Positions 5,132-33,455 of a stretch of 64,000 nucleotides of DNA are shown here, piece by piece; position 1 is the first letter of the stretch; each line of letters opens with the position of its first letter. The notes beneath the pieces were generated by a model. It had not been told where the DNA came from and made no database searches. It worked only from the letters and a program-made list of their open reading frames with translations. Source of the stretch: Myxococcota bacterium (GTDB taxonomy: Bacteria > Myxococcota_A > UBA9160 > UBA6930); the NCBI GenBank assembly GCA_965223415.1, contig OZ245002.1, positions 4,416,001 to 4,480,000 of the forward strand. Reading direction: 5' to 3'. A program made the position numbers and the translations under genes.

Positions 5132-5419
5132 CGGGCGCTCCCCCTGCTTCGAAGGCTCGGAACCCGCCTGGGGGCGCGCGGTTCGGAGCTTCGGGGTGCG
5201 TTCGGCCGGCCGGGCGCAGACGCCCGCAGGGAGCCCTTCATAACGTGGCAAGAAAGACGCAACTTACCGGCACCATTGTGGATTTTCCGACCCCGGAGCG
5301 ATCCTATGGGAGCCACCCGGGGGTGTCAACGAGGCACTCACCTCTGTAAGGTAGGTCGACTTCGAGGCCCGGTTGGTGTCGGTGGGTCCACACCGGGCAG
5401 GGGGAACGAGCCCGTGAAC

Positions 5420-30743: not shown

Positions 30744-31861
30744 GCGGGCTCTGCATCTCGGCGGACAGCCACATCACGGAGCCGGCGGGAACCTACGTCG
30801 ACTTCATCGACGCGAAGTACCGGGCTCGGGCGCCGCAGCTCCGCTACCACGAGAAGCTCGGCGACGCGTTCTTCGTCGAGGGGCTCGACAAGCCCGTGCC
30901 GATGGGGCTCGTGGCGGCGGCGGGGAAGCCACCGGAGGAGATTCGGGTCACCGGCGTGCGCTTCGAGGAGATGCACCCCGGCGGCTGGGACGCGGACGCG
31001 CGGATGGCGGAGCAGGACCGCGACGGGGTGGCGGCGGAAGTCATCTATCCCACCGTCGGCATGGTCCTCTGCAACCACCCGGACTTCGACTACAAGAAGG
31101 CGTGCTTCGAGGCCTACAACCGCTGGCTCGCCGCCTACTGCGAGAAGCACCCGGCCCGGCTGATCGGGCTCGGCCAGGTCTCGATGCGATCCCCGGAGGA
31201 CGGCGTGGCGGAGCTCGAGGCCGTGGCGGCGCTGCGCCTGCGGGGCGTGATGATGCCCGGCGACCCGGCGGTCGAGGACTACGACTCCCCGGTCTACGAC
31301 CCGTTCTGGGACAAGTGCGTGGAGCTGGGGCTGCCCCCGTCGTTCCACATCCTGACCGACCGCAACTACGCGTTCCGCGCCAAGCCGCGCGGTCCGGCGA
31401 TGAACGGCTTCCTCTCCATCGTGCGGGGCTGCCAGGACGTGATGGGCACGCTCGTGCTGGGCGGCGTGTTCGAGCGGCACCCGGAGCTCCGGGTGGTGTG
31501 CGCAGAGGCCGACGCCGGATGGATTCCCCACTACATGTACCGGATGGATCACGCCTACAAGCGCCATCGCTACTGGCTGCCCGCGGGTCAGAAGCTCTCC
31601 AAGCTGCCGAGCGAGTACTTCGGCGAGAACATCTACGCGACCTTCCAGGACGACTGGGTCGCCTTCAAGGTCGCGCACCTGATGAACTGGCGGCGGCTCC
31701 TGTGGGCGAACGATTTCCCCCACAGCGATTCCACCTGGCCCTGGAGCCAGGACATGCTGGCCGAGCACACCACCCACCTCACCGACGAGCAGCGCAGAGG
31801 CATTCTCGCCGCCAACGTCGCCGAGCTCTATCGCATCGACACCGATTCCCTAACAACTTGA
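30740..31861 (+). CDS. Amidohydrolase_2 family protein
   Basis: ISADSHITEP, DGVAAEVIYPT, WANDFPHSD. Confidence 0.88.
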   Translation: MSGLCISADSHITEPAGTYVDFIDAKYRARAPQLRYHEKLGDAFFVEGLDKPVPMGLVAAAGKPPEEIRVTGVRFEEMHPGGWDADARMAEQDRDGVAAEVIYPTVGMVLCNHPDFDYKKACFEAYNRWLAAYCEKHPARLIGLGQVSMRSPEDGVAELEAVAALRLRGVMMPGDPAVEDYDSPVYDPFWDKCVELGLPPSFHILTDRNYAFRAKPRGPAMNGFLSIVRGCQDVMGTLVLGGVFERHPELRVVCAEADAGWIPHYMYRMDHAYKRHRYWLPAGQKLSKLPSEYFGENIYATFQDDWVAFKVAHLMNWRRLLWANDFPHSDSTWPWSQDMLAEHTTHLTDEQRRGILAANVAELYRIDTDSLTT

Positions 31862-31877
31862 CAAACGGAACCGGCCC

Positions 31878-32540
31878 CTAACTTGACAGCTCGGATTGGA
31901 TGGCGGCTTCGAGGGCGGCGGGGTCGAAGCCGAACGGGCCGGGGGCGCCCTGGTAGACGATGCGGGCGCCGCGGCCTACGAGGTAGAGGCGGTCGGGGAG
32001 GGCGCCGTAGGCGCGGGCCAGGGCGTCGTCGATCTCGTCGACGACGACGGGCATGCGGATGCGGAGACCGATGGCGCAGCTGGCGGCGGCTTCGGTGCGC
32101 TCCTCGGTGGTGGTGGGGTCGTCGAAGGCGATGTCCTCGTCGCGGTTCATGCTGACGACCCAGCCGTCCTCCGGGTGGGCCTCGCGGATGTAGACGACGA
32201 CGAAGTCGACCCGGTCGCGGTAGCGCTCCCACTGCTCGTGCAGGGCGCCCAACTGGGCGCGGAACGGCGGTCAGGTATAGGAGCCGAATACGAGCGCCAC
32301 GGGACGCTTCCGGGCGGCGCCGTGGAGGTGGAAGGTCTCGCCGGTCTCCCGGCGCACGCCCTCCCTGAAGTCGTAGACCGGGAGCGAGAAGTCGTGGGCC
32401 AGATCGGCCGGGGCCAGCTTCGCACGGGTCAGGTCCTGCACCTTGGCGTCGGCGAAGAGGTCCGGCGGCGTCTTCGGCGAGTCGTCCGGGGTGATGGCCT
32501 TCCAGTCGAAGCCCTCGGGGAGGATGTCGTCCTGTGCCAT
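31878..32540 (-). CDS. Iodothyronine deiodinase-like selenoprotein (Sec at TGA 32273-32271)
   Basis: RPVALVFGSYT-TGA-PPF reads in frame into YIREAHPEDGW, VVVD, YGALPDRLY, YQGAPGPFG; joins ORF-track pieces 32271..33257 and 31878..32252. Confidence 0.9.
32245..32260 (-). promoter_or_regulatory. Bacterial SECIS-like hairpin
   Basis: GCGCCC-AGUU-GGGCGC starting 11 nt after the UGA; G in apical loop. Confidence 0.7.
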
Positions 32541-32558
32541 TCCGTTACTGTAGCGCGC
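32541..32558. promoter_or_regulatory. Overlapping bidirectional -10 elements for two leaderless genes
   Basis: TACTGT (+, 32546-32551) 7 nt before GTG 32559; TACAGT (-, 32552-32547) 6 nt before ATG 32540. Confidence 0.55.
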
Positions 32559-33455
32559 GTGCACGCCGCCCTCGCCCAGCTCCTCCAGGTGCTCGATCTG
32601 CGTCCGGAGGGCGCCGACGTGTTCGTCGGGAGCAACGAGCCCGGGCGCCACCGCCGGCTCTTCGGGGGGCAGGTGGCGGGCCAGGCCCTGGCCGCCGCGG
32701 CTCGCACCGTCGAAGGCCGGCCCGCCCACTCCCTCCACGCCTACTTTCTGCGTGGCGGGGATCCAGAGCTCCCGGTCCGCTACGAGGTGGACCGCATCCG
32801 AGACGGCTCGTCCTTCACGACCCGCCGCGTGGTCGCGATGCAGGGCGAGCGGGCCATCTTCAACCTCTCCGCCTCGTTCCACGCGCCCGAGCCCAGCTAC
32901 GAGCACCAGGCGCCGCTGCCGGCCGTGGTCGGGCCCGAGGGCCTGCCCACCTGGGAGGAGCGGGCCCGCGACGTCGAGTTGCAGATTCCCGAGCCCGCCC
33001 GCGGCTGGCTCACGAACGAGACCCCCATCGAGATCCGCACGGAGCATGCGCCCAGCTGGTTCGCCCGCCAGCCGACGGCGGGCCCCAACACGGTCTGGCT
33101 CAAGGCTCGAGGTGAGCTTCCGGACGACCCGCTGCTCCACCAGTGCCTGTTCGCCTACGCCTCGGACATGGGCTTCGTCGACAATCTCTTCCGTCCCCAC
33201 GCCGGCGGAAAGCGCGACGTGATGATCGCCAGCCTCGACCACGCCCTGTGGCTGCACCGCCCTTTCCGCATGGACGACTGGCTGGTCTCGATCCAGGAGA
33301 GCCCGGCGGCCTACGGCGCCCGGGGCTTCGCCCAGGCCGCCGTCTACACCGCCGACGGAACGCGGGTGGCCAGCGTCGTGCAGGAGGGGCTCCTGCGACG
33401 CATCGGCCAGGAGGCGCTCTGGGACCGTGAGATGGGTGGGCCGCGTCCCGAGTAG
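32559..33455 (+). CDS. tesB: Acyl-CoA thioesterase II
   Basis: LFGGQVAGQAL, HSLHAYFLR, RDGSSFTTRRV, YASD, ASLDHALWLH, QEGL. Confidence 0.92.
   Translation: MHAALAQLLQVLDLRPEGADVFVGSNEPGRHRRLFGGQVAGQALAAAARTVEGRPAHSLHAYFLRGGDPELPVRYEVDRIRDGSSFTTRRVVAMQGERAIFNLSASFHAPEPSYEHQAPLPAVVGPEGLPTWEERARDVELQIPEPARGWLTNETPIEIRTEHAPSWFARQPTAGPNTVWLKARGELPDDPLLHQCLFAYASDMGFVDNLFRPHAGGKRDVMIASLDHALWLHRPFRMDDWLVSIQESPAAYGARGFAQAAVYTADGTRVASVVQEGLLRRIGQEALWDREMGGPRPE

Follow-up and report, generated by a model that had tools for sequence, protein, structure and literature searches.

Within the window, a stretch of 64,000 nucleotides from a single-contig genome of 5.83 Mb (97% complete), a deiodinase-like selenoprotein gene occupies positions 31878..32540 of the minus strand. 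From ATG to TAG, it codes for 220 amino acids including a soluble N-terminal extension. Translation of the minus strand (32540→31878) gave one frame of 220 codons plus the stop, with a sole internal TGA at codon 90 (32271..32273, minus strand). This TGA, which we read as selenocysteine (Sec), appears in the context FGSYT*PPF and is followed downstream by YIREAHPEDGW and then YGALPDRLY, as the preliminary description of a 220-codon frame broken by TGA had it. It aligns with Sec170 of Dio3 and with Cys in homologues. Under translation table 11, ORF calling split the frame into two ORFs, 32271..33257 and 31878..32252, the latter beginning at TTG. The two halves on either side of the TGA are both coding-like, with GC3 values of 0.93 and 0.95. 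The position of the ATG start is matched in 10 close homologues (L021-L030), which have an ATG 87-92 codons upstream of their own TGA.

The integrity of the sequence was examined with contigs from sequencing runs. One contig each from runs X1, X3 and X4, which may be the source sample, covers the full gene with zero mismatched letters. A 151-nt contig from X5, a different study, spans positions 32166-32316, TGA included, also with zero mismatches. A TGC or TGT in the reads had been named beforehand as what would speak against a selenoprotein; all of these contigs, that of the second study included, show TGA. Because contigs from two studies match letter for letter, the TGA is no assembly error.

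Both flanking genes are on the strand opposite to the selenoprotein gene. The divergent neighbour encodes a TesB-like acyl-CoA thioesterase II (32559..33455, plus strand; putative GTG start codon), and the convergent one an amidohydrolase of the Amidohydro_2 family (30752..31861, plus strand; approximate start). SDRs, a PhyH dioxygenase, a glyoxalase and a P450 are encoded in the surrounding region. We compared this context with that of homologues, using 49 homologous loci from which redundancy had been removed. The neighbour clusters seen most often in these 49 loci were SDR (4), fatty-acid-hydroxylase-containing (4) and P450 (3), and the closest homologues are flanked by a mixture of lipid, aromatic and transport genes. 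TesB was met again at a single locus, L027, where it lies downstream. For the nitroreductases near L024 and L029, no NCBIfam family scored above its cut-off. Since the context is not conserved across the 49 loci, the neighbourhood says nothing on the substrate. The catabolic neighbourhood, initially taken as a functional clue, is therefore abandoned as such; the gene is, besides, opposite in strand to its flanks.

The ATG of the selenoprotein gene and the probable GTG of tesB are separated by 18 bases, within which the sequence TACTGTA (32546..32552) forms overlapping -10-like hexamers on both strands. TACAGT is found 6 nt before the selenoprotein ATG and TACTGT 7 nt before the tesB GTG, so that the two divergent starts, 19 positions apart (32540-32559), share a single TACTGTA. 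In the genome, TAnnnT peaks 6 nt before ATG, with 142 occurrences at 5316 in-frame sites as compared to 26 at 5418 out-of-frame ones, and TANNNTA occurs 245 times in all. Positions 2 and 6 pair in TACTGTA, as reported for bidirectional promoters (bioRxiv 2020.01.31.928960). TACTGTA is probably a bidirectional promoter of leaderless type, from which both genes would be transcribed leaderless. A sigma-70 promoter and terminator scan, which requires a -35 box, found nothing. Most close homologues have instead a Shine-Dalgarno-like GGAG or GGAGG upstream.

The preliminary description had proposed a search for selA, selB, selC and selD. All four are present in the genome, each above its curated cut-off: SelA with an E-value of 2e-131, SelB with 267 bits (cut-off 242), SelD with 253 bits (cut-off 125) and tRNA-Sec with 69 bits (cut-off 47), ARAGORN detecting tRNA-SeC too. 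The tRNA-Sec gene is located at G000:C1:4487765-4487863, about 8 kb past the end of the window; selA, selB and selD are scattered and distant. The SelD match (G000:C1:562702-563610) lies within an 883-codon open frame and may be fused to an N-terminal domain; SelD itself carries Cys (CGGCAAK). Among relatives, SelA is present in 14 of the 15 having a TGA-bearing match and absent from G011 (85% complete). Co-occurrence with SelA was considered as evidence for Sec and set aside as non-discriminating, SelA being found in 37 of 40 relatives regardless.

A SECIS-like hairpin, GCGCCC-AGUU-GGGCGC (32245..32260, minus strand), starts 11 nt after the UGA and has its loop G at position 32253. A small apical loop containing G is the published hallmark of the bacterial SECIS (PMC1088965). 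We examined the same region in the set of homologous loci. 47 of the 49 loci gave a row, two being unparsed; one locus holds two genes and one spurious row was dropped. In this way, 48 genes, the present one included, were parsed. The equivalent of codon 90 is TGA in 43 of them and TGC in the other 5. The 18th base after the UGA is the loop G in 43/43 TGA genes and in 0/5 TGC genes, which code other amino acids at the loop-G codon. One caveat to this count is the general preference for CAG among Gln codons (95%). However, GGG is used in all 10 genes that have Gly at the loop-G codon, although it makes up 19% of the Gly codons in the genome. Over 25 aligned rows, the loop G is invariant (25/25), the stem is paired in 66% of cells as compared to 34-54% in slid registers, and stem covariation reaches 0.45 as compared to at most 0.24 in controls, in a test that took its structure from the fold of this gene itself, a bias in favour of that structure over the slid controls. 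Two of the five stem measures, both-side changed pairs and further pair types, did not beat shuffles. Folding energy by itself did not set the region above shuffles (z 0.05 to -0.73), the genome being 71% GC. Therefore, the SECIS call rests on covariation and on the loop G. At 7 of 8 other TGA sites inspected in the genome (6 of 7 redoxins plus the CMD gene), a G is also found at this position.

Overall, we consider it nearly certain that the gene is intact, that SelB, acting at the hairpin, directs insertion of selenocysteine at its UGA, and that the product is a soluble 220-amino-acid protein of thioredoxin fold with a deiodinase insertion. That the locus is instead a pseudogene, an assembly error or two short genes, with only an 89-aa or a 124-aa product made, agrees with standard gene calls, which split the frame, but is very improbable in view of the partition of TGA and TGC among the 48 genes, the covarying SECIS stem, the complete Sec machinery, the agreement of contigs from two studies and a fold that continues across the TGA.

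How such genes escape annotation can be read from the hairpin. The sole TTG codon of the gene is codon 97, inside the hairpin, and TTG represents 2.9% of the Leu codons of the genome. The database copy of this gene is a 124-aa C-terminal piece. Likewise, of the best 120 database hits, 107 consist of a C-terminal fragment; 96 of these 107 begin exactly 20 residues before the Y-x-x-E-A motif, which is the position of the hairpin TTG. The fragment annotation thus arises from gene callers taking the hairpin TTG as a false start, and the misannotation that had been foreseen for this gene extends to most of its best database hits. Four database proteins, P0005, P0037, P0345 and P0362, have Trp at the catalytic position; these probably correspond to a TGA read as Trp by a code-4 call.

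Other redox-family genes of the same genome contain a single in-frame TGA: 7 of 14 AhpC/TSA matches (G000:C1 48831, 1053804, 1320654, 1621435, 1678180, 2980532 and 4270914), 1 of 3 GSHPx matches (GPx, G000:C1 1013073) and 1 of 10 DSBA matches (G000:C1 1600855), as well as a CMD gene (G000:C1 5147022). These ten or more further genes point to a large, redoxin-rich selenoproteome. No internal TGA was seen in the 13 molybdopterin matches of the genome.

Translated across the TGA, the protein matches PF00837 with 107.3 bits (cut-off 27; E 1e-30). Bacterial deiodinase-like selenoproteins, in Sec and Cys forms and with a bacterial SECIS, were described by Zhang et al. in 2005, who suggested a redox function (PMC1088965). 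22 deiodinase-like sequences were counted in GOS data (PMC2398784), and a 2026 review places the family among those known from bioinformatics alone, with a largely unresolved function (PMC13188914). With the proteins of 2005, the present one shares PF00837, a UGA at the catalytic position, the loop-G SECIS and Cys homologues, Cys being found in 118 of the 129 representatives having a residue at the column, a check on homologues that had been suggested at the outset. No feature was found setting it apart from the bacterial family. The gene shows all the testable features of the bacterial deiodinase-like selenoproteins, as that family was predicted in 2005. The family motif is UxxC in the table of the 2026 review, whereas it is UPPF in this protein and its clade (PMC13188914). 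In the literature searched, which covers open-access sources, no assayed bacterial deiodinase-like protein is reported, though selenoprotein catalogues in supplements may already list the clade; within the same coverage and in the accessible parts of the sources, no mention of the Cys in helix alphaD of the bacterial family was found.

The NCBIfam model NF038285 (deiodinase_rel) is matched over positions 190-340 of its 347 (E 1.8e-52) with 178.9 bits, below the cut-off of 250, this protein being without the N-terminal half of the model. In members above the cut-off, for instance P0123 and P0158, that N-terminal half carries EF-hands. The distribution is patchy: a family member was found in 18 of 41 related genomes and, in a phylum sample, in 24 of 201. 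The closest homologues are 60-69% identical, and their records are titled Pseudomonadales, Gammaproteobacteria, Pseudomonadota, Azotimanducaceae, Deltaproteobacteria and Myxococcota. A second TGA-bearing subfamily is found in related genomes (L048, L052-L054, L059, L060, L063, L064), with a long hydrophobic N-terminal region, a longer omega-loop (WxLGRSRTQR) and up to three paralogues per genome. Its hydrophobic N-terminal region suggests that membrane-anchored bacterial forms may exist. L048 (G005:C238) and G004:C473 each show a pair of deiodinase-like genes from different subfamilies, placed end to end with opposite strand orientation. A Pfam CMD/AhpD domain is present in 4 of 28 selected long homologues (P0123, P0155, P0158 and P0254), and P0231 has an AhpD-related NCBIfam match. 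CMD/AhpD fusions often come with EF-hands, and many TPR fusions are found in the wider family. Other wider-family fusions include tandem deiodinase-like domains (P0226, P0296), a PHB-depolymerase-like esterase (P0216) and a ceramidase-like domain (P0240).

A structure model of the protein was obtained with a pLDDT of 93.6 and a pTM of 0.90. In this model, the fold is continuous across the TGA and consists of a thioredoxin fold with the deiodinase insertion and a Prx-like N-terminal module. Animal deiodinase structures 4TR3 and 9H48 (PDB) were used for comparison. The best fold match is Dio2 (Z 19.5, rmsd 2.9, 172 residues), followed by Dio3 (Z 18.6, rmsd 2.9, 168 residues). The next folds, DsbE/TlpA, ResA, AhpE and BCP, have Z-scores of 15-16, all others than the deiodinases being at 16.1 or less. 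At the sequence level, alignment gave E-values of 5e-23 with mouse Dio3 and 4e-21 with Dio2. Dio3 residues are numbered hereafter as the chain index plus 113, an offset anchored on Sec170.

The hydrogen-bond network of Dio3, formed by Ser167, Thr169, Sec170, Tyr197, Glu200 and His202, is kept as Ser87, Thr89, Sec90, Tyr117, Glu120 and His122. The last three belong to YIREAHPEDGW (32160..32192, minus strand), in which Trp127 corresponds to Dio3 Trp207 and which marks the start of the omega-loop insertion. This insertion and the S-x-T-U-P-P-F sequence are features of animal Dio1-3 also seen here. Besides Trp207, Arg225 and Arg260 of Dio3 are kept, and Glu259 is replaced by Asp, still acidic. In Dio enzymes, the Glu200Ala, Thr169Ala and Ser167Ala substitutions lower activity (PMC7506546). 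In contrast, the recycling cysteines of Dio3 are replaced, the proximal Cys168 (a residue of Dio1 and Dio3) by Tyr88 and the distal Cys239 by a residue at about Met163; Cys occurs at these two positions in at most 3/236 and 1/363 family rows. Three further Dio3 residues are Pro here: His219 (Pro142), Phe258 (Pro182) and Arg275 (Pro200), and no basic residue is found at or beside position 275 (Ala199-Pro200). His219 and Arg275 of Dio3 have been tied to substrate binding, and Phe258Pro reduces Dio3 activity (PMC7506546, citing its ref. 14). Whereas animal Dio enzymes have a transmembrane anchor and a SECIS in the 3′ UTR, this protein is predicted to be soluble, with a bacterial in-frame SECIS and an extra Cys in helix alphaD. 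Indeed, no N-terminal transmembrane segment was found, the best 19-residue Kyte-Doolittle mean being 0.32 within residues 1-75 and 1.1 over the entire protein, in agreement with the initial observation. With the network kept and His219, Arg275, Phe258, Cys168 and Cys239 replaced, the core is deiodinase-like and the thyronine-binding and recycling residues are not. On these alignments, the predicted protein is not a member of the animal deiodinases. The initial proposal of a soluble Sec-dependent dehalogenase or redoxin in a catabolic neighbourhood holds as to a soluble, Sec-encoding, deiodinase-like protein, and fails as to the neighbourhood as a functional clue.

The extra Cys, Cys155 (32076..32078, minus strand), is the only Cys of the protein and a candidate resolving residue. 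It is located in the model helix alphaD (145-158). Cys155 is conserved in 118 of 120 near hits, in 74 of 95 long hits and in 116 of 148 aligned 50%-cluster representatives. When the count is limited to rows in which neither position is a gap, and those with Trp at position 90 are dropped, Cys155 is kept in 175/219 rows with Cys90 as compared to 3/11 without it (Fisher p 4e-4, kinship uncorrected). With representatives only, Cys155 is found in 94/117 rows with the catalytic Cys as compared to 2/9 without (p 6e-4). On a tree of 231 rows built with FastTree, at least 9 changes of state are counted for the catalytic Cys, but a kinship-aware co-loss test, left with 2 independent pairs on supported branches, gave a median sign-test p of 1 and has no power. 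Because the p of 4e-4 ignores kinship and the kinship-aware test is powerless, the coupling of positions 90 and 155 is suggestive, not shown.

A second link to the redoxins is given by Pro182 (31995..31997, minus strand), present in 359/363 family rows. HHalign of the protein with a TlpA-like protein of the same genome (probability 98%) places Sec90 on the first Cys of WCKPC and Pro182, which aligns with Dio3 Phe258, on the Pro of an FPE motif. We take this TlpA-like Pro to be at the thioredoxin cis-Pro position. Like the present protein, atypical 2-Cys GPx/Tpx and TlpA/ResA/DsbE have a thioredoxin or Prx-like fold with the nucleophile at the start of helix alpha1. The Cys of helix alphaD has a parallel in PtGPX5, whose resolving Cys92 is in the helix equivalent to alphaD; a similarly placed helix is found in E. 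coli thiol peroxidase, and Dio3 Cys239, unlike PtGPX5 Cys92, sits after the alphaD helix (PMC7506546). TlpA/ResA/DsbE differ by their CxxC dithiol, the present motif being U-P-P-F with Phe93 at the second position, and neither GPx/Tpx nor TlpA/ResA/DsbE has the deiodinase omega-loop carried here. GSHPx (PF00255) gave no match at E 0.01 or better, the locus being absent from the 3 PF00255 matches of the genome, and AhpC-TSA reached 25.6 bits, below its cut-off of 26. Peroxiredoxins carry the signature motif PxxxT/SxxC. This motif is absent here, and the genome's own Prx-like genes show a PK(D/A)FTPGU-type motif. Given that these searches yielded neither a peroxiredoxin nor a GPx signature, calling the protein a specific peroxidase would be unwarranted.

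Our best reading, though a tentative one, is a soluble two-electron Sec90/Cys155 redoxin acting on an S- or O-centred substrate. In such an enzyme, the Sec90 selenolate, at the start of helix alpha1 in the nucleophilic position (that of the first Cys of CxxC), would attack an electrophilic S-S, S-X or O-O bond of a substrate bound at the omega-loop pocket. The oxidised Sec would be resolved by Cys155 after local unfolding of alphaD, as in atypical 2-Cys GPx/Tpx, and thioredoxin, a partner of AhpD type or a small thiol would then reduce the resulting selenenylsulfide. The substrate would be no thyroid hormone and, most likely, no halogenated compound. In favour of the redoxin are the conservation of Cys155 and its place in helix alphaD, the replacement of both Dio3 recycling cysteines, the TlpA-type alignment of Sec90 and Pro182, the redoxin folds that rank next after the two deiodinases, and the CMD/AhpD fusions of some homologues. 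Several observations count against it, among them the lack of power of the kinship-aware test and the failure to find a peroxidase signature. Cys155 is lacking in 44/219 rows with the catalytic Cys. The homologues fused to AhpD, most of which also have EF-hands, come from a distant Cys-type subfamily and lie outside this clade, and the genome already encodes many other redoxins. Finally, conservation of the entire hydrogen-bond network of the deiodinases argues for a chemistry like theirs.

This last point bears on an alternative that is possible but rather unlikely, in which the protein is a soluble Sec-dependent reductive dehalogenase of halo-aromatics (a phenol, tyrosine or diphenyl ether). 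The selenolate would abstract I+ or Br+, the Ser/Thr/Tyr/Glu/His network would protonate the ring and Cys155 would resolve the selenenyl halide. Such chemistry is consistent with Dio3 and Dio2 being the closest sequences and folds, with the conservation of all of Dio3 Ser167, Thr169, Tyr197, Glu200, His202, Trp207 and Arg225, three of which lower Dio activity when changed to Ala (PMC7506546), with the patchy distribution, and with the neighbours of close homologues, which are often lipid or aromatic catabolic genes. However, Pro replaces His219, Arg275 and Phe258, the last of these changes making Dio3 less active (PMC7506546), the membrane anchor is missing, no halogen-related gene recurs among the neighbours of the 49 loci, and the same motif set is found in EF-hand and TPR-fused Cys forms. 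The reductive dehalogenase profile PF13486 matched 0 of 41 genomes, in a search where the controls gave no match either.

The assignment of Cys155 as resolving residue in the redoxin cycle may itself be questioned. We give a probability as low as that of the dehalogenase to a genuine selenoenzyme whose Cys155 would have a structural role or none, and in which Sec90 acts alone, re-reduced directly by an external thiol, on a substrate whose class we do not guess. The rows with the catalytic Cys and without Cys155 noted above argue for it, as do reports that Cys239Ala left Dio3 activity unchanged (PMC7506546) and that DTT sustains turnover by Dio1 and Dio3 in which neither conserved Cys is present (PMC11592359). 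The tree-based co-loss test, having no power, leaves it standing. Against it, 8 of the 11 rows without the catalytic Cys have also lost Cys155, on about 9 separate tree changes.

A broader and quite doubtful proposal extends the dehalogenase to the whole family. The bacterial proteins would be the soluble ancestral form of the thyroid-hormone deiodinases, cobalamin- and flavin-free selenoenzymes that remove iodine or bromine from natural organohalogens, recycle via the alphaD Cys and are hidden as split calls in thousands of genomes and metagenomes.

The gene is one more member of a family in print since 2005, and its value is that of a test case. As the protein is small, soluble and confidently modelled, with a single Cys and close natural Cys homologues, two questions become cheap to test. 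The first is what bacterial deiodinase-like proteins act on. The second is how deiodinase-fold enzymes are re-reduced, a matter debated even for Dio1-3 (PMC7506546, PMC11592359). The gene also shows, through the fragmentary state of most of its best database hits, the extent to which annotation hides the Sec forms of this family.
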